From an uncultured bacterium (GTDB lineage Bacteria > Abyssobacteria > SURF-5): a stretch of DNA of 44,222 nt. A model generated the notes under the pieces. The model was not told where the DNA came from and ran no database searches. It worked only from the letters and a program-made list of their open reading frames with translations. Location of the stretch: contig CAZSKP010000037.1 in the NCBI GenBank assembly GCA_964607485.1, positions 1-44,222 on the forward strand, read 5' to 3'. This document shows, piece after piece, positions 29,312 through 40,855 of this stretch (position 1 is the first letter of the stretch; every line of letters begins with the position of its first letter). The translations under genes and the position numbers were made by a program.

Positions 29312-31222
29312 TTGGTCTCACGCATATCTAATCCGGTTCTGATAAACACGGCGCTGAGAAACATGCAGACTTCTCTCCGCCAGTTGCAGGACACGCAGGA
29401 GATTCTTTCGACAGGGCTCGTGATTCAGCGTCCCTCCGACGACCCCCTCGGCGCGGCGACTGCGCTCAGGCTCAGGGCGGAGATCGTCGAGATAAACAGG
29501 TTCGTCGTCAACAACGACCGCGCGGAATCGTTCGTCACGGCGACCGACGGAGCGTTGAGCACGATGAACGACATACTGAACGAACTGCGGGGGATAACCG
29601 TGACCGAGGCGAACGGCGCGAGCAACGAACAGGCGCGCAGAGCCGCCGCACTGCAAGTTGACGCCATAATGGAACAGCTCGTGCAGTCGGCCAACTCCGA
29701 TTTCGGAGGCCGCTACATCTTCGCGGGTCACGAGACCGAGACCGCCCCGTTCGTTCGCGTCGCCGACGGCGTCGAATACCGTGGCGACGACGGGCTGATA
29801 CTCGAAGAGATCGGGCCCGGCAACGTGATACCAATCAATATACCCGGCAACGCCGCCTTCGCAACGTTCATCGGACAAGTCATAGGCGACCGCGACCTGA
29901 ATCCCGACATCAGCGCCGGTCCCAGCTTCGATACGCCCCTGGCTCAGCTCAACGGTGGCAACGGAGTGCAGCCGGGAAGCATCGTCATCACCGACGGCAG
30001 CGGCGCTTCTGCCACGGTTGACCTGACGACGGCCGCGACCATAGGAGACGTTATCGCCGCGATAAATGGGGCCGCGGGAGTCACCGTCACCGCAAGTGTC
30101 AACTCAGACGGCTACGGCCTCTTGATTACCGACAATTCCGGAGGCACGGGTCAGTTGACGATAGCCGAATCCGGGGCGACCACCACGGCGGCCGACCTCG
30201 GCATACTGGGCAGCGGAACGGGAAGCATCCTGGGAAGCGACCTCGACCCCATCGTGGGGGGCTCCGCGGTGACCGCGGGCACGCTGCTGAGCGACGTGAA
30301 CTTCGGCGCAGGCGTGGACATGGCGACGGCCGCGTTCAACGTCACCGACCGCGACGGCAACACCGCGACCGTCAGCATCGCAGGATTGACGAACGTCGGC
30401 CAGGTCGTGACGGCGATAAATGCGGCGGGCACCAACGTCACCGCGTCGATAGCCGCCGACGGGAGCGGCATCGACCTGACAGACACGGTGAGCACCGGGC
30501 GGAGCCAGATTACCGTCACCGAGGCGGGAGGCACGACGGCCGCCGACCTCGGGCTCCTGGGCACGGGCATCGGCTCGACGCTTCAGGGGGCGAGGCTCGA
30601 CCCTGCAGGGGTTCCGTCCACTCCTCTCTCGCTTCTCAACGGCGGGCTGGGAATCTCGCTCGGGACCATCCGAATCACGAACGGAACGCTGACGGCGTCG
30701 GTGGACCTGACCGGAGCCGTCACCGTCGGAAACGTCCTGGCGGCGATAGAGCGCGCGGGCGTGAGAGTCGATGCGACGGTCGACTCCGCCGGCCAGAGGC
30801 TCATCGTCCAATCCCAAACGGGCGACACTCCCATCATAATAGTCAGCGAGGGCGACGCCGAGACGGCGGAGGAGCTGGGACTGTTCGCGCCCGGGATGTT
30901 CGAGACGGCGGAGGAGATACGCCAGGCGTTGTTGAACAACGACCCGGAGCGTCTCACGCAGCTCATCGGAAACGTTGATGACGCAACCTCGCGGGTCATC
31001 GACGCGCGCGCGAGCGCCGGCCAGCAGATGGTGCAGGTAGATTTCGCGCGTTCGCGCCTGCAGGACCTCGAGTTGAGCTTCGAGACGCTGCGCTCGAAGA
31101 CCGAAGAGGCCGACCTGACCGAGTTCGCGACGCGACTGGTCAACCAGGAGACGATATACCAGGCCTCGCTGGCGACCACCGTACAGGTGCTCCAGCCGAC
31201 GCTTTTCAGTTTCCTCGGATAA
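29312..31222 (+). CDS. flgL: Flagellar hook-associated protein FlgL with an expanded internal repeat region
   Basis: RPSDDP and GRYIFAG N-terminal flagellin domain; C-terminal EEADL...YQASL...LFSFL; TTG start after GGAGG. Confidence 0.93.
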   Translation: MVSRISNPVLINTALRNMQTSLRQLQDTQEILSTGLVIQRPSDDPLGAATALRLRAEIVEINRFVVNNDRAESFVTATDGALSTMNDILNELRGITVTEANGASNEQARRAAALQVDAIMEQLVQSANSDFGGRYIFAGHETETAPFVRVADGVEYRGDDGLILEEIGPGNVIPINIPGNAAFATFIGQVIGDRDLNPDISAGPSFDTPLAQLNGGNGVQPGSIVITDGSGASATVDLTTAATIGDVIAAINGAAGVTVTASVNSDGYGLLITDNSGGTGQLTIAESGATTTAADLGILGSGTGSILGSDLDPIVGGSAVTAGTLLSDVNFGAGVDMATAAFNVTDRDGNTATVSIAGLTNVGQVVTAINAAGTNVTASIAADGSGIDLTDTVSTGRSQITVTEAGGTTAADLGLLGTGIGSTLQGARLDPAGVPSTPLSLLNGGLGISLGTIRITNGTLTASVDLTGAVTVGNVLAAIERAGVRVDATVDSAGQRLIVQSQTGDTPIIIVSEGDAETAEELGLFAPGMFETAEEIRQALLNNDPERLTQLIGNVDDATSRVIDARASAGQQMVQVDFARSRLQDLELSFETLRSKTEEADLTEFATRLVNQETIYQASLATTVQVLQPTLFSFLG

Positions 31223-31240
31223 CGAGGCCATTGTGAAAAG

Positions 31241-31708
31241 ATGAAGATAACGAGCAGAACGCTGGGTGAGATCGAGCTTGCCGATGAGCAGATCGTCGAG
31301 ATGCCTTCGGGAATGATCGGCTTTCCCGCGTTCAACCGCTACGCGCTCGTTCCGTTCGCCGACTCCGACGTGCCCTTCCTCTGGTGGCAGTGCATCGATG
31401 ATCCCTCTGTGTGCTTCATCCTGATCGACCCCGCGCTCGTGTATCCCGACTACGAAGTGGCCGTGCCGCACGAAGAGCTGGAGGACATACGGCTGAAGGC
31501 GGCCTCGGAGGGGTCGGTGTACGTGGTGGTGACGGTGCCGAGCGACCCGCGCCAGATGACCGTCAACCTGATGGGGCCGATTGTCATTAATCGTTCCGCC
31601 CGCAAGGCGAAACAGCTTGTGCTCACGGACCCTCGCTACACGACCAAGCACAGGCTCCTGCGTGAAGAGGCGCCAGGCCATGCTTGTGCTAACTCGCAAA
31701 CTGAATGA
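31241..31708 (+). CDS. fliW: Flagellar assembly factor / CsrA antagonist FliW
   Basis: GMIGF, F.LIDP...[15 protein letters not shown]...QLVL...YTTKH. Confidence 0.93.
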
Positions 31709-31916
31709 GAGCGTCATAATAGGCGACACGATCGCCGTCACCGTGGTGGCGGTCGAGGGCGACCAGGTAAAGCTCGGCATCACCGCGCCCAAAGAAATAT
31801 CGGTGCACCGGCAGGAGGTGTACGAGCAGATCAAGAAGGCCAACGTCGAAGCCGCGAAGTCTTCCTCGACGGACATATCGTCGGTTCTGAAGCTGTTGCC
31901 GCCCCGAAAGAAGTAG
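31680..31916 (+). CDS. csrA: Carbon storage regulator CsrA
   Basis: [16 protein letters not shown]...[22 protein letters not shown] 31680. Confidence 0.97.
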
Positions 31917-35047: not shown

Positions 35048-35145
35048 AACGGCGCCACCAGCCTGCTCATCCGCCGAGGGCAGATTCCCTTTTCCCAGGC
35101 GAAGCCTCATTCAACCACGGATTAACACGGATTAGAACTGTATTA

Positions 35146-36702
35146 TTATTTCAGCTTCTTCTTAGTTCTGCTTGACAGCAACTCTTCATAAGCAGTTTTG
35201 GCCTGAATGGATAGTTGTCTATCTATTCCTAAAGATTTTTCGATAAATTCAGTCGCAACTTTCACGGCTTCTCGCCGGTCGTTTCCCTGAAGCAGCTTAG
35301 ATGCTTGATTATACACACCAGCTATTGAGCGATCTCTAGAGGAGTAACATATCGCCTTTCTCAAAGAACTCGGTTCAATTTTAAGCACTCCACTTCCATA
35401 AACCTTTGAGTTAGCCTCTATAGATAGCTGTCCCGGAATCGACAACAGGCTAAGCTGAATCCATTTCTTCTGAGTGGGTGTGATATTCTTAAAGAAGATT
35501 CGATGTATGGAATTTGTGCACAGAATATTCTTGTTGTTCAATACGAGGTAGGGAATCAGTGATACCCTATAAGGAAAAAACGCATCAGGAATATCTCCTG
35601 TCCTCACCATATACCATGGCTCTCGCCGTTGGGAATGAGATCTTAAGTGATACCCTTCAGCTTCTCCATATTCAATATGGTTCTTGAAATGAACTGCGTT
35701 TTGCCTCGTTATCAAGATGAGTTGCCTATCTGGTATGTTGCCGTCTATTGAGAATCCACGAAGCTGTGCGCCATTGGTAAGAATTGGCATTGTTCCATTA
35801 GTGCCAAGGCTCATCGTATTCAGTTCATCTTCATGTTTAATAAAAAAACTGTTGGCGCCGGTAACAACTCCAATAGATACGTTTGCATATTTCCCGAAAT
35901 TATCAAAACCGTATTGCGATTTATATCTCTTCACGACCTCCGAAGAATCATAAGAAAAAGAGAGGCTTACTCGATCTCTTGTAAAGCATTCCTTTGAGAT
36001 ACTGTGATACCTAACATGCTCCGTTAGAGTACTAGCGGTGCCTATGGACAATTTCCTGTTGGGACTTCCGTGCCCTTTCATCCAAACTAGAACCACTCTT
36101 TCCTGAGCATCATTAAATAGATCATTTCCGAGTGCAAGTATCTTTATATCGCGGAACAAACGTGTCAGCCATTTCCTTAGGTCAACTGAATAGTCTGCTT
36201 GCAGAAAAGACCATGGAAGTATCGCGCCAATGCTTCCTTTATTCTTGAGATGAGCCGTCGCTTTAACTATAAAATAAGCCCAAAGGTCAGACGTTCTCTT
36301 AAGAGGGAATATGTCTTCAATCATATTTTGATAATGATCGAGTGTGTCTTTCTTCAGATAGTGATGCCGGACATATGGAGGGTTCATAAGGACGACATCA
36401 AACTTCCCTTTACCCGCATAATCAAGGAAATCGCACTTACTAAGATTTGACGCAGGGAGATGCTGTGTTCGATTGGATAAAGGGGAAAGATCACAGCCGA
36501 ATAGGTTGATTCTCTTCCTTGACTGATGCTTCTCCCTTAGCACCTGCTCAGCAGCAAGGAGTAGTGCTCCCTTACCGAATGCAGGATCAATGATTCTTAG
36601 CTTTGGGCCAGTTATTAAAGGTTCGACTAGCTTTCTTGCTAATAAGGAGGGTGTGTAATAGATCCCATTTCTTCTATTGTCAGGAAGTGCTTTCTTTCCC
36701 AT
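35146..36702 (-). CDS. N6-adenine DNA methyltransferase (gamma-type order; Eco57I/TaqI-like catalytic domain + TRD)
   Basis: GIYYTP (motif X), IDPAFGKGALL (motif I), MNPPY (motif IV), DLWAYF, GVVTGANSFF, YGSGVLKIEP. Confidence 0.9.
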   Translation of the reverse strand: MGKKALPDNRRNGIYYTPSLLARKLVEPLITGPKLRIIDPAFGKGALLLAAEQVLREKHQSRKRINLFGCDLSPLSNRTQHLPASNLSKCDFLDYAGKGKFDVVLMNPPYVRHHYLKKDTLDHYQNMIEDIFPLKRTSDLWAYFIVKATAHLKNKGSIGAILPWSFLQADYSVDLRKWLTRLFRDIKILALGNDLFNDAQERVVLVWMKGHGSPNRKLSIGTASTLTEHVRYHSISKECFTRDRVSLSFSYDSSEVVKRYKSQYGFDNFGKYANVSIGVVTGANSFFIKHEDELNTMSLGTNGTMPILTNGAQLRGFSIDGNIPDRQLILITRQNAVHFKNHIEYGEAEGYHLRSHSQRREPWYMVRTGDIPDAFFPYRVSLIPYLVLNNKNILCTNSIHRIFFKNITPTQKKWIQLSLLSIPGQLSIEANSKVYGSGVLKIEPSSLRKAICYSSRDRSIAGVYNQASKLLQGNDRREAVKVATEFIEKSLGIDRQLSIQAKTAYEELLSSRTKKKLK

Positions 36703-37399
36703 AGCAAAAGTCGGTTGTAAATAGGTATGCTGCTTGATGGTGCCTTTCGAAAAATTTCACGCATTGTTTGTGATACGGCTTTATGAATATTTTCTCATGT
36801 TTAGCTATCACGCCCCTCCACACTGAATCTTCAACAATCTTATGAGTATCCTCGCAACGAAACTCTTTGAATAGTTTATTCAACAGTATTGCAAGAGTCA
36901 TGGGAATTGAATAAATCCTGGGTTGTGAAAGCTCCGGGAATAAGATTTGATTATAGGATTCTTCGTACCCTTTTAGACCACTCGACATCTCTCCGGCATA
37001 CTGGAGGTGAAATATAGGCTTTAAGTATCTTTTGTCACATTTCGCATAATCGAAATGAAATTTCCTTTTGGGAATATATTTCCCCCTTCTATTCTTAGTG
37101 CCTATAAAGAGATAATATGTAATCTGTGAGAAATCATTGACGATTCTTGAGCCAACATGGATACGCAGGTCCCTTCTTGAGCAAGTCACATCAAAAAAAG
37201 ATTCAAAATTGATATTGTGTATCTTAGCCTTCTTACGTGATGATAAGGCATCATATTGAAGCTTTGCTTTGGAACTCAATTGGGGGAATTTCTCTCTGAC
37301 ACGAGGATTTGAAGAGAGGAAGCAAAAAGTGTCTTTTTCACAATCCTTAATTATTGATGAGTCCCTATAAGGACTATCTTGCCAATCATCAATTTTCAT
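36680..37399 (-). CDS. Uncharacterised protein (RKFHFDY...PIFHLQY...PRI; DUF2290-like by eye)
   Basis: 239-aa ORF overlapping both neighbours; the family resemblance is tentative. Confidence 0.7.
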   Translation of the reverse strand: MKIDDWQDSPYRDSSIIKDCEKDTFCFLSSNPRVREKFPQLSSKAKLQYDALSSRKKAKIHNINFESFFDVTCSRRDLRIHVGSRIVNDFSQITYYLFIGTKNRRGKYIPKRKFHFDYAKCDKRYLKPIFHLQYAGEMSSGLKGYEESYNQILFPELSQPRIYSIPMTLAILLNKLFKEFRCEDTHKIVEDSVWRGVIAKHEKIFIKPYHKQCVKFFERHHQAAYLFTTDFCYGKESTS

Positions 37400-38412
37400 T
37401 GAAGAGGTCTCTGCATTCGAATTTCCTCAAAGTACAATGCAGATTCAAAGCGAGGATGAGGCACAGAACAGGAGATATGCAAGGGAACGGCTGTTTTCGC
37501 ATCTTCATCTGTGTAACCTACAATTTCAGGACTCGCCTTTCCACATGCGTGACATTTGCTTCGATCACTTTTCGATATACCATTCAATTTGTATCCAAGA
37601 TTCCAAGGGAGTACTTCATCGCTATCGAGCACCCTAGAAAACACAATCTCCTTTATTACGGATTGCCACCACCTTTGAGATTCTACATCGCTCGGAAATG
37701 AAAATATGCCTTTGTATTTGGCTTTCTCAAAGACTTCTTCAACCTTCTTAAACGCCTCACACTTAATGCCTAGCGTTGTTGCCGTCCAAAGCCTATCGTA
37801 TAGAAATCCAGGCCTTTGCATAACTGTCTGCCTTATCCATTTATAAATATCACTCGGAAGGCTCTTATCCTTGGATGCCATGCTTTCATTCAGTTCTTTA
37901 GGTATAATTCTCTTAATATTATCAACGTCTTCCTTTGGGCTTTTCATTAATGAAATTAACTGACCGGCGTCACGGGGAGGTTTTTCTCGCAATTTTCTAA
38001 ACCCCTCGGCGATGCCCGTTAATAGATATCTCCTCTCAGAGACATCTTCGAATCTAATTATCTCATCATAGACACGTTGCTTGTGGCTATCAATCTCATT
38101 CAATGGCACGTTAGTTATTGAAATAATCGGATAAGGTTTCCAGCCATCATTGTCTCTTAGTAATTCGGTTGCAGTAGAACCGGTGCTTATTATATTCTTA
38201 TCAGATGTGCTGTCAAAACGGTGATCAATAATGAGTAAGTCTGGCTTCTTTCGATTAGCTGCAATTTCTTGCATCTTGTCCATAAGCTTCATTTTGTTAA
38301 CAAGAATAAAGTCGATCTTAACTCCCAGGGCCTTCGCCAGTTCCTTGCTCGCTCTACCTTTCGGGCCATCTTTTTTTTCATCATCAAGCCAGAGGAACGT
38401 CATTCCTTTCAT
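37396..38412 (-). CDS. Receiver-domain protein with an unknown middle domain and C-terminal CxxC/HxxC Zn finger
   Basis: FLWLDDE, LLIIDHRF (phospho-Asp position), ISIT; CHAC...HISC. ATGA overlaps at both ends. Confidence 0.8.
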   Translation of the reverse strand: MKGMTFLWLDDEKKDGPKGRASKELAKALGVKIDFILVNKMKLMDKMQEIAANRKKPDLLIIDHRFDSTSDKNIISTGSTATELLRDNDGWKPYPIISITNVPLNEIDSHKQRVYDEIIRFEDVSERRYLLTGIAEGFRKLREKPPRDAGQLISLMKSPKEDVDNIKRIIPKELNESMASKDKSLPSDIYKWIRQTVMQRPGFLYDRLWTATTLGIKCEAFKKVEEVFEKAKYKGIFSFPSDVESQRWWQSVIKEIVFSRVLDSDEVLPWNLGYKLNGISKSDRSKCHACGKASPEIVGYTDEDAKTAVPLHISCSVPHPRFESALYFEEIRMQRPLQ

Positions 38413-40640
38413 GGCAAATCAATCTCCAAAATGGCTTTCCAGTCTCCTTCTGGGGGCAAGATTCTGATGTCGCCGCTTCTTGCTTGAAGTATTTCTCTTA
38501 CGATGCTAAGTCCAAGTCCGCTGCCAGTCCCGACAATATATTTATCTTCGCGATTCAACTTTTTCTCCAGCCTTGAATAAAGCTTACCGTCAACATCTGC
38601 AATAAAGGGTATGAAAATGTCTCCGTGTTTCTTGGGATTTAGTCCAAAGCCAGTATCCATGAATCGTATGTTCACCTTTCCGTCGGATTTCTTTGCGGAT
38701 ATTTTTATCTTTCTTTCTTTGTCAGCGGCAATAATAGACTTGATCGAGTTGGAAAACAAGTTCAAGAGCACGGCATATAGCTCGGCTTCTAGAATGGGGC
38801 CAACAACCATATTAGGTGGTATTCCGCTCGTATCAACGGTGATACCATAGCTCTCTGCTATAACTCTAAATGCTTTGCTTGCTCCTTCGACTCTATCAAG
38901 AAGGGCTAAGGATTTCGGGGTTTCCTTCCTGCTGTCAACACCAATTAGTGCTGTCATATCCAACAACTCCAGGAGACGTCCCTTTGAAGTTCTCAGCCAA
39001 TCCTGAATATCATCAACCCGATTTCTCTCGGGTCTTGCGAGGTTCTTCTTGATGTTTTCAAGCTGTAACAGACTACCTTCAAGATGACCGAGAAGCATCT
39101 TCACTTCATGCGAGAAAATAAGTATCAGTGTCGAAGTTGAGGCAATGAGTCTGAGGTGTTTTAGCTCCTCTTTGTTAGACTGGTCATGCTTTACGATCGC
39201 GTCGGTTGCTTTATGAACTGCGGTGCTGATTGCCTGACGCTGCTTTGTGGGTAGGGCCGAAGCAATACTTTTGAACTCGTCTCTTAGATAGTCAACAGCA
39301 ACCTCAATGACTTCTTGAGATTCTATTGATTTTTCTACGATTTCCTGAAAATCAGCTCTGCTCGCATCTGCACTTTTCCTTGTTTGCTCCCTGATATAGA
39401 AATCACGGTAAATGGTCGCCCAATCAATAGCGAAGCGAACAAATGTTTTCAATTCTTCAAATTCATCGGAGCGAATAAATCCCTCACGATTTGACTTCAA
39501 TTCAAAACCTTTTGCGCCTTGACCAATTTCAACATTGCCTATGTGGCTCTTCATTGAAAGCAAGCTTAACAATGCACGATCAGGGGCCACACCGAGCAGG
39601 GCATCCGCGAAGGCTTGAAGTTCTTTATCTCTTGGAGGACCTTTTCGACTTCCTCTATCTGCATCTATCTTGAGCCAATCGTCATCGCCATATGGATACA
39701 CTCTAAAACCCTTATAACGAATCTGAATGCCACCCCAATCAGGGAGCATTTCACTTAATGTTCCTTTCGAGAGAATACTAGTATCTCGCATCTGGGGTCG
39801 TTCTGATACCATGATTCCGATTTCCATCTTGATGTCGGAGAGCTTGGGATATTTGCGCTGGGATATAATCTTTTTTCGCCCAATGCCTAAGGCGTCAAGT
39901 TCGCAAACCGCCTTATGGCTTTTATTGATATAGGCTTTCACTGTTCCCCAGCCAGCCTTGATCAAATCAGACCTAAGGTCTCTTACTTCTCCCTCAAACC
40001 CGGGGGCGTCTATGGAAATATTGAAGCCGGGGTCCTCTTCGAATCCTTCGCGCCAAATCCCTCTATTAGCGGCCAGCACTGCAAGCTGTCGTTTCAGATA
40101 GTTATACCCACCGGTTGTCCACTCATCGACTAAGTCGCAAATGATTAACGTAGTTCCTGTGTAGCCGCCTTTCTTGGTATGTTGTTCACCCTGGCAGCTT
40201 ATTTCCGTTACTTTGGTGCCAGGCTTGAAGGCAGCCCAATCGAATAATACTTCCGTCTTTTCATACGTTGACGCCCTCTTGCCCGTTGTTACCAACTTTA
40301 GTTTCTTGCCGAGGCGACGACAACAAAAACGACCGATCCCTTTTGAGCCAGTTTTGGGGCGTCCATATCTAGCGGAAACATCTTGTGACTTCTTAATGGT
40401 GGTGGCAATATGCATCCAATAAGATTGGACTTCCTTGAAGTTCATCCCACTCCCGTCGTCTATGATGCGAATCTCATCAATACCATCATCACCTTCAACA
40501 AACTTGATGGTAACTTGTGTTGCGTCAGCGTCATAGGAATTCTTCACAAGCTCGACGAGGGCATAGTGAACCCTTTCCACAAGGCGTTCGCCAAGCTCCC
40601 CCAGCAGTGCGCTATCCACTGTGAATTTCAGTGTTGCCAT
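38409..40640 (-). CDS. MORC/GHKL ATPase fused to a C-terminal histidine kinase
   Basis: N-terminus has ELVKNSYDADA, IIDDGSGM, GSKGIGRF, GTTL. C-terminus has FSHEVK (H-box), NLFSNSIK, DTGFGL, IFIPF, GSGLGL. No TM segments. Confidence 0.9.
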   Translation of the reverse strand: MATLKFTVDSALLGELGERLVERVHYALVELVKNSYDADATQVTIKFVEGDDGIDEIRIIDDGSGMNFKEVQSYWMHIATTIKKSQDVSARYGRPKTGSKGIGRFCCRRLGKKLKLVTTGKRASTYEKTEVLFDWAAFKPGTKVTEISCQGEQHTKKGGYTGTTLIICDLVDEWTTGGYNYLKRQLAVLAANRGIWREGFEEDPGFNISIDAPGFEGEVRDLRSDLIKAGWGTVKAYINKSHKAVCELDALGIGRKKIISQRKYPKLSDIKMEIGIMVSERPQMRDTSILSKGTLSEMLPDWGGIQIRYKGFRVYPYGDDDWLKIDADRGSRKGPPRDKELQAFADALLGVAPDRALLSLLSMKSHIGNVEIGQGAKGFELKSNREGFIRSDEFEELKTFVRFAIDWATIYRDFYIREQTRKSADASRADFQEIVEKSIESQEVIEVAVDYLRDEFKSIASALPTKQRQAISTAVHKATDAIVKHDQSNKEELKHLRLIASTSTLILIFSHEVKMLLGHLEGSLLQLENIKKNLARPERNRVDDIQDWLRTSKGRLLELLDMTALIGVDSRKETPKSLALLDRVEGASKAFRVIAESYGITVDTSGIPPNMVVGPILEAELYAVLLNLFSNSIKSIIAADKERKIKISAKKSDGKVNIRFMDTGFGLNPKKHGDIFIPFIADVDGKLYSRLEKKLNREDKYIVGTGSGLGLSIVREILQARSGDIRILPPEGDWKAILEIDLP

Positions 40641-40818
40641 AGTATTTTATGACCTTCTGCAAGTGGCACAGTGAACGGAACCCATGTTGTCAACTACAAA
40701 ATACTACCTTCAGTTAACTAAAGTCAAGCGGAAAGAGCCCGGAGTCGGGAACCCAGGATCTTAAGTCCGAAATAATCTTTCGCGGCTTTGCGACTTTGCG
40801 TGCGCAGCGGCTTCATCG

Positions 40819-40855
40819 AAAAAAAATCCCCCACCGAGGGGTGTCGGCGGGGGAT
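40819..40855 (-). terminator. Rho-independent terminator of the etf operon
   Basis: Minus strand reads ATCCCCCGCCGA-CACCCC-TCGGTGGGGGAT followed by a T-run. Confidence 0.85.

Follow-up and report, generated by a model that had tools for sequence, protein, structure and literature searches.

We examined a 44,222-nucleotide (nt) stretch of DNA (the window; contig CAZSKP010000037.1, assembly GCA_964607485.1) from an uncultured bacterium of the Abyssobacteria lineage SURF-5, and in it a gene for a 239-amino-acid (aa) protein of an unnamed, DUF2290-like family, which we designate T239. The gene (36680..37399, minus strand; ATG start, 239 codons) is the third in a cassette of four genes on the same strand. 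The first, HK743 (38409..40640, minus strand), encodes a dual-GHKL protein with a MORC/MutL-like HATPase_c_3 domain at its N terminus and, at its C terminus, a class I histidine kinase (DHp and HATPase_c domains). The second, RR338 (37396..38412, minus strand), encodes a receiver (REC) protein with an uncharacterised C-terminal domain of ~200 aa. The last (35146..36702, minus strand) encodes an N6-adenine DNA methyltransferase of 518 aa, composed of an Eco57I/N6_Mtase catalytic domain and an M_Eco57I_C target-recognition domain. The HK743 and RR338 genes overlap by 4 nt, the ATG of T239 and the TGA of RR338 share the sequence ATGA (a 4-nt overlap), and the last 23 nt of the T239 gene overlap the start of the methylase gene. 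An earlier note, made from the sequence alone, had described T239 as coupled between the receiver and the methylase in the slot where a restriction endonuclease would be expected, and these overlaps agree with the coupling.

The cassette occupies an island of low guanine-plus-cytosine (GC) content (35100..40750; ~5.6 kb), with an MFS transporter gene on one side and etfA/etfB-like genes on the other. The GC content is 38-48% in the island compared with 58-66% in the flanking DNA. At the upstream edge it falls from ~0.66 to 0.51 at a terminator-like hairpin (40826..40855, minus strand; 12 pairs and a T-run) that follows the upstream etfA-like gene. No tRNA gene and no convincing flanking or direct repeats were found at the island borders. 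The T239 gene was present in only one of 11 genomes of the window's phylum, namely, the window's own. Given the low-GC island and this distribution, the cassette looks horizontally acquired.

An exhaustive phmmer search of 1.84 billion cluster representatives returned 264 relatives of T239 at E ≤ 1e-3, including 169 at E ≤ 1e-10. Among the 150 listed, the full-length relatives are stand-alone proteins of 219-253 residues, with ~230-250 aa as the general size in the family. Alignment of 80 family members revealed that the three motifs singled out in the earlier note as conserved-looking, RKFHFDY (residues 112-118), KPIFHLQYAG (127-136), and PRIYSIPM (160-167), are indeed the best-conserved parts of the protein. 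H115, D117, P160, and P166 are invariant in the 80 sequences, and conservation is at least 90% at E21, T24, F65, Y95, R112, K113, F116, P128, H131, Q133, G136, R161, E179, W194, E202, and Y233. The T239 gene is real and under selection. The family has a median isoelectric point (pI) of 8.3, with the window protein at 9.4, whereas DUF2290 proteins are acidic (5.1-6.5).

The window protein had no match at E ≤ 1 in Pfam, PADLOC, or NCBIfam, and none of the 80 aligned members had a significant Pfam match. Sequence searches of the PDB, with the single protein or with a profile, gave nothing below E 0.4. No relatives were found in plasmid and phage collections (tblastn, E ≤ 1e-3), and the single protein used as a query against genome contigs gave no match. 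A further homologue search returned three relatives besides the window protein itself; with the 80-member alignment as the query it returned eight proteins, among them the window protein and the same three relatives, and with one DUF2290 protein it returned two. A short match in PHROGs (phrog_32519, function unknown; E 1.3e-4, residues 85-127) was set aside as uninformative.

In order to follow the cassette in other genomes, a degenerate DNA pattern for [LIVMF]RKFHFDY was used; it gave 76 loci, 22 of which were confirmed by the hidden Markov model (HMM) of the family. The confirmed loci come from Bacteroidota, Planctomycetota, Nitrospirota, Aminicenantes, KSB1, Elusimicrobiota, Desulfatiglans, and Gammaproteobacteria. 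A homologue of RR338 lies directly before T239 in 21 of the 21 loci where the contig reaches that far, and a homologue of HK743 precedes the receiver gene in 20 of 20. Wherever the contig extends, the kinase, receiver, and T239 genes are carried on one strand with their ends overlapping or abutting. The earlier note had allowed for a dispensable gene that is not conserved in homologous operons; T239 is kept in all 22 loci. One copy, from an Aminicenantes metagenome-assembled genome (L004:10372-12583, minus strand), has the kinase orthologue split into open reading frames (ORFs) of 194 and 492 aa and is probably a broken cassette.

A gamma-class N6-adenine methylase gene is adjacent in every related locus that extends far enough, and its identity and placement vary. 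A close homologue lies directly downstream of T239 in 15 loci. A more distant methylase is found downstream on the same strand in L038, L057, and L023, and on the opposite strand, in convergent orientation, in L016, L029, and L053. L030 has an Eco57I/TaqI_C methylase upstream, and L070 has one methylase upstream and, downstream, an HsdM-like one to which an S domain is fused. In an independent case (L087), reached via a kinase with 29% identity, the kinase is again accompanied by a 363-aa gene, by a T239 member, and by an Eco57I methylase. Across 18 loci, the correlation of pairwise distances is stronger between T239 and the receiver (r = 0.86) or the kinase (r = 0.80) than between T239 and the methylase (r = 0.54). 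Thus, the kinase, the receiver, and T239 are inherited as a unit, and the methylase is exchanged.

These observations bear on the notion of a regulated type II restriction-modification (RM) system, which the earlier note had named as the alternative should T239 match an ordinary restriction enzyme fold. That framing is too narrow, because the methylase is swapped while the other three genes coevolve and because the closest validated system, Ambrosia of Pseudomonas aeruginosa (AbrR-AbrA-AbrB-AbrC-AbrD; van den Berg et al., bioRxiv 10.1101/2025.09.30.679545), is itself unlike classical type II RM. The methylase family and the target-recognition domain change while T239 stays, which makes it unlikely that T239 is a type IIP enzyme whose sequence specificity is matched to a single methylase. 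It is more likely that T239 reads the methylation state or is recruited. With an exchangeable methylase, the choice of target would not lie in a fixed sequence specificity shared by the two proteins, as it does in type II RM.

A search of 401 genomes with the kinase, from which 16 regions were fetched, revealed sister cassettes in which the slot of T239 holds other proteins. In L095, the gene after the receiver encodes an HNH_2 protein (E 1.3e-10). In L099, it encodes an HNH-like protein with a visible CxxC..HxxH..CxxC pattern (PF01844 at E 0.003, below cut-off), and the gene order is that of the window: kinase, receiver, slot gene, and Eco57I methylase. In L090, the slot holds a metallo-beta-lactamase hydrolase (Lactamase_B, E 3.3e-11). 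Because of these occupants, the third slot is seen to be an output position of varying content, often a nuclease, in line with the expectation in the earlier note. The validated Ambrosia system is similar in this respect, as it has an HNH protein.

Five further cassettes (L096, L097, L100, L101, and L102) comprise a C5-cytosine methylase, a dual-GHKL kinase, and then a protein of 428-492 aa, with no further gene. These last proteins had no Pfam match even at E ≤ 0.1 and may be receivers fused to a further output. Repair genes of the Vsr or HhH-GPD type flank some C5-methylase kinase cassettes (L091:11307-11762, plus strand; L092:11289-11957, minus strand; L097:12259-12891, plus strand), which agrees with the report by Bellieny-Rabelo et al. 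(PMC8011034) on pairs resembling two-component systems (TCS) near C5 methylases.

The structure of T239 was predicted with AlphaFold2 from the 80-member alignment. The model is very confident (predicted local distance difference test [pLDDT], 95.5; predicted template modeling score [pTM], 0.92) and starts with four N-terminal helices, after which four long strands form a meander; strand five, one helix, a short strand six, and the helices of the C terminus complete it. RKFHFDY falls on strand four, FHLQY on strand five, and PRI on strand six. K113, H115, and D117 (strand four), H131 and Q133 (strand five), and R161 (strand six) should therefore cluster on neighboring strands of the model, as judged from the alternation of residues along the strands and not from coordinates. 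Two ideas prompted by the motifs were rejected: a 2-oxoglutarate oxygenase-like HxD...H triad, as the secondary structure of the model has no jelly-roll, and the paired HxTx motifs of 2H phosphoesterases, as the model has no bilobed fold; the fold searches returned nothing for either.

Foldseek comparison of the model with the PDB returned no matches at E ≤ 0.001, and neither did a fold search of BFVD at the same threshold. These values lie under the level that models without a match usually attain. There is accordingly no confident match to an ordinary restriction endonuclease fold. The earlier note had set T239 apart from PD-(D/E)xK, HNH, and PLD nucleases; neither these families nor GIY-YIG gave a sequence-family match or a solved-fold match that would support T239 as a nuclease. 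On the basis of the model, no known nuclease fold is supported, and the absence of a match rules none of them out.

Defense effectors are modular and are often not nucleases. T239 might then be an abortive-infection toxin with a target other than DNA (a nucleotide, nicotinamide adenine dinucleotide [NAD], RNA, or a protein), fired by the phosphorelay, with the methylase in another role. A fold unrelated to known nucleases would suit such a toxin, and the H, D, H, Q, R, and K cluster could bind a phosphorylated small molecule. We consider this reading improbable, however: the DNA methylase neighbor in every sufficiently long locus and the nuclease families in the equivalent slot both point to DNA, and in Ambrosia no host toxicity was observed during defense, according to the accessible part of the report (bioRxiv 10.1101/2025.09.30.679545).

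The earlier note had likened the T239 motifs to those of DUF2290-type proteins. As a statement of family membership this did not hold: PF10053 (gathering score, 25 bits) had no match to the window protein at E ≤ 1 and is not among the 25 Pfam families listed for the 80 aligned members. As a statement of remote relationship it gained moderate support. Two of 43 divergent T239 members gave colinear, subthreshold PF10053 matches (13.9 and 15.2 bits; E 0.036 and 0.015, respectively). True DUF2290 genes above the cut-off were present in 3 of 401 genomes of a Planctomycetota sample and in 3 of 401 of a second sample, and seven of the proteins were aligned. Comparison of the 80-member T239 alignment with these seven using hhalign gave a probability of 34% (E 4.2e-4, 75 columns). 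With 18 divergent T239 members the register was unchanged and the probability was 63% (E 7e-5, 78 columns), compared with 0.08% over 4 columns for a control against the receiver-protein alignment.

The alignment of T239 with DUF2290 is confined to the C-terminal half. It pairs RKFHFDY with P[IL]RFDY, PxFHLQYxG with HPxxHLxxG, and PRI with CRIP. The residue pairs D117/D138, P128/P152, H131/H155, and R161/R165 (T239/DUF2290) are conserved in both families and invariant on the DUF2290 side, and the HPxxH form of DUF2290 is found in many divergent T239 members. DUF2290 also is the only Pfam family among the language-model look-alikes in the ESM Atlas: 22 of the 30 named look-alike clusters are in the DUF2290 set, and one cluster has PF10053 in 15% of its 142 members. 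From these sequence comparisons, it is probable, though unproven, that the C-terminal half of T239 is remotely homologous to DUF2290.

The genomic settings of the two families differ. True DUF2290 genes directly follow a gene for a UvrD-like helicase (5 of 5 loci tested); T239 does not follow such a gene, and receiver and kinase genes precede it in all loci. This bears on a further reading, in which T239 would regulate the phosphorelay as a phosphatase of the receiver, a phosphate sink, or an inhibitor, with a logic like that of the Detocs buffer protein. The invariant His and Asp of T239 are residue types used in phosphotransfer, and its closest coevolution is with the receiver. Yet DUF2290 relatives work with a helicase and with no two-component proteins, T239 is replaced in sister cassettes by nucleases rather than phosphatases, and the cassette would be left without an effector, all of which make a regulatory role for T239 very improbable.

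Pfam analysis of HK743 identified HATPase_c_3 (E 4.8e-21, residues 24-125) and HATPase_c (E 2e-19, residues 619-731), and comparison with the PDB aligned residues 490-727 with HK853 (a DHp-like region and HATPase_c) and residues 19-88 with MutL. Residues 5-187 resemble the N terminus of BbrUII/HgiDII (NCBIfam NF050001; E 1.5e-19), with 70 bits where the cut-off is 550. The methylase matched Eco57I (8e-17), N6_Mtase (1.2e-15), and M_Eco57I_C (1.3e-6) in Pfam and MTase_II (PDLC03267, 6.2e-65) in PADLOC. RR338 has a receiver fold with an invariant phospho-acceptor Asp, D63. Its residues 125-338 had no Pfam match, and the whole-protein fold searches were filled by REC matches. In the C-terminal domain, D302, H319, and R332 are invariant among 21 orthologues, and C287 and E296 are nearly so. 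Further inspection of its tail of ~50 residues (284-338; window 37396-37560, minus strand) revealed a CxxC...C(x3)H pattern, which is present in some orthologues (for example, L023, L038, L045, L057, L068, and L070) and absent from others. From its sequence, the tail is possibly a degenerate zinc-binding or catalytic module.

The features of these neighbors bear on whether T239 is catalytic at all. It could be a noncatalytic accessory, either an adaptor or reader of DNA or of the methyl mark or a coupler of the receiver or kinase to DNA, with cutting carried out by the Cys/His-containing C-terminal domain of RR338, by the central part of the kinase, or by a host nuclease. Consistent with this, no nuclease-like fold was found for T239, and the conserved aromatic residues of its sheet (F65, Y95, F114, F116, Y118, F130, Y134, and W194) together with its basic pI fit a binding surface. 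The C-terminal domain of RR338 is conserved (including the three invariant residues) without an assigned function, and the N terminus of HK743 resembles the BbrUII/HgiDII restriction enzymes, although far below cut-off. Against it, sister cassettes hold bona fide nuclease families in the T239 slot and share the kinase architecture, which makes it unlikely that the kinase is the nuclease; the Cys/His pattern of RR338 occurs in only some of the 21 orthologues; and the invariant H/D/H/Q/R cluster would seem to be a catalytic or metal site more than a pure binding surface. On balance, we regard an accessory role as unlikely, though as one to be kept in mind.

Upstream of the kinase start, by ~58 nt, lies a promoter-like site (40698..40727, minus strand) that matches 9 of 12 consensus positions. 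Promoter-like sites in the region do not exceed those in shuffled sequence (12 versus 10.5), so this site is a candidate only. A perfect sigma-70 consensus (TTGACA, 16 nt, TATAAT; 12 of 12 positions) lies inside the RR338 gene (38189-38216, minus strand) and, as a predicted promoter, could express T239 and the methylase separately from the kinase gene. Elsewhere in the window, upstream of the island (29312-31916, plus strand), are ORFs of 636, 155, and 111 aa. Judged by eye from the translations, we take the 636-aa product to be flagellin-like or hook-associated-like, and the end of the 111-aa product presumably resembles CsrA.

We propose, with a probability of about 0.5, that T239 is the DUF2290-like effector of an Ambrosia-like, phosphorelay-gated, RM-like cassette that has been horizontally transferred. 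The cassette would represent an uncharacterised variant of the Ambrosia kind of RM-like system under two-component control. In the proposed mechanism, HK743 would sense infection or foreign DNA via its MORC-like ATPase head, autophosphorylate, and pass the phosphate to D63 of RR338. The lineage-specific C-terminal domain of RR338 would then turn T239 on, directly or via its expression, and T239 would act on DNA through the polar cluster of K113/H115/D117, H131/Q133, and R161. The methylase would provide a mark distinguishing self from target or would mark the target, as proposed for Ambrosia, and it and T239 would have no common fixed sequence specificity. The parts of this proposal are not equally firm. 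The earlier note had suggested an effector or specificity subunit, possibly with a catalytic His, and each of these roles is putative. That T239 is the output effector of the cassette has roughly even odds, and that it is itself a nuclease is a tentative suggestion. A bolder version is speculative and, in our view, unlikely: T239 and DUF2290 would form an unrecognised effector superfamily of new fold, with an Asp-His-Arg plus His/Gln site on an antiparallel sheet, T239 would be a nuclease gated post-translationally by direct contact with the C-terminal domain of the phosphorylated receiver, and the methylases would be exchangeable.

Several points weigh against the proposed effector role and its Ambrosia-like setting. 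The sequence link to DUF2290 is below the level usually accepted as proof; H115, invariant in T239, corresponds to an invariant Arg in DUF2290, and the T239 family HMM had no match in the true DUF2290 loci. To our knowledge, no biochemical activity has been described for any DUF2290-like protein. The accessible parts of the literature on Helicase+DUF2290 (PMC10952713, PMC12278908, PMC11381338, and bioRxiv 10.64898/2026.09.16.752016) describe no mechanism. The C-terminal domain of RR338 or the middle of HK743 (residues 190-460) could hold the catalytic activity instead. The sample of 22 loci was drawn by the RKFHFDY motif and so is biased toward one branch of the family. The likeness to Ambrosia is drawn from domain make-up and not from comparison with the Abr sequences, and Ambrosia has a HipB-like XRE gene, AbrR, whereas the window has no XRE regulator gene. 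Between the kinase start (40640) and the end of the etfA-like gene (40901), there is no ORF of at least 50 aa except those overlapping the etfA-like gene. Among the upstream neighbors scanned in the related loci, an XRE-type protein was found in L028 only (HTH_3), and L016 gave only a subthreshold HTH_17 match.

Helicase+DUF2290 and the Ambrosia-type kinase-gated systems are both validated as antiphage, and both have open mechanisms. If T239 is a true relative of DUF2290, one module would serve two sensors driven by ATP (a helicase in one system, a GHKL kinase/receiver pair in the other) and would be their shared output, and this would open a direct way into the workings of both. The T239 family has 264 representatives from many phyla and no Pfam entry, and its confident model has no solved relative, so that solving a structure or finding an activity would close a real gap.

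According to the accessible part of the Ambrosia report (bioRxiv 10.1101/2025.09.30.679545), that system consists of an XRE regulator, an N6 methylase, a histidine kinase/HSP90-like ATPase, a REC-wHTH (winged helix-turn-helix) protein, and a type IV-like HNH protein. None of the five genes can be dispensed with, infection induces expression, and AbrA methylation leaves the phage unprotected. The window shares with Ambrosia a tight cluster of an N6-adenine methylase, a histidine kinase/HSP90-like ATPase, a receiver, and one gene in the effector slot, and thus an RM-like make-up with two-component control. It differs in that the effector of Ambrosia, AbrD, is a type IV-like HNH protein, whereas the window has T239, which gave no significant HNH match by sequence or structure. 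The receiver of Ambrosia carries a wHTH, whereas RR338 carries its ~200-aa C-terminal domain without a Pfam match, and the gene order is also different, with the methylase last in the window cassette. No follow-up on such variants was found in the Ambrosia literature.

A second comparison is with the TCS-like pairs HEF_HK (PF19191)/Response_reg_2 (PF19192) beside R-M systems and paraMORC ATPases (Bellieny-Rabelo et al. 2021, PMC8011034). In the accessible part of that report, as in the window, a kinase-like protein with a fused GHKL HATPase_c_3 head has a receiver-like partner, and the pairs are linked to methylases and to nucleases such as HNH_2 and Vsr. However, it stresses C5-cytosine methylases and makes no mention of a protein like T239 or DUF2290, and neither HK743 nor RR338 matched PF19191 or PF19192 at E ≤ 1. 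The type II enzymes BbrUII/HgiDII resemble the neighbor HK743, and not T239, in the N-terminal GHKL head; the rest of HK743 is a histidine kinase and not the body of a restriction enzyme.

T239 itself is best compared with Helicase+DUF2290, which protects against T7 according to the accessible part of Rousset et al. 2022 (PMC9122126). The partners differ, being a kinase/receiver pair and a methylase in place of the UvrD-like (SF1) helicase, and the accessible DUF2290 literature makes no link to kinase/receiver/methylase cassettes. T239 also has an extra helix (residues 137-158), falls below the PF10053 cut-off, and is basic rather than acidic. Nevertheless, members of both families are stand-alone proteins of ~220-250 aa whose genes directly follow that of an ATP-driven partner, and they share a colinear core of [HR]-F-D-[YF], (H)P-x-x-H, R-I, P-M, and a hydrophobic helix.

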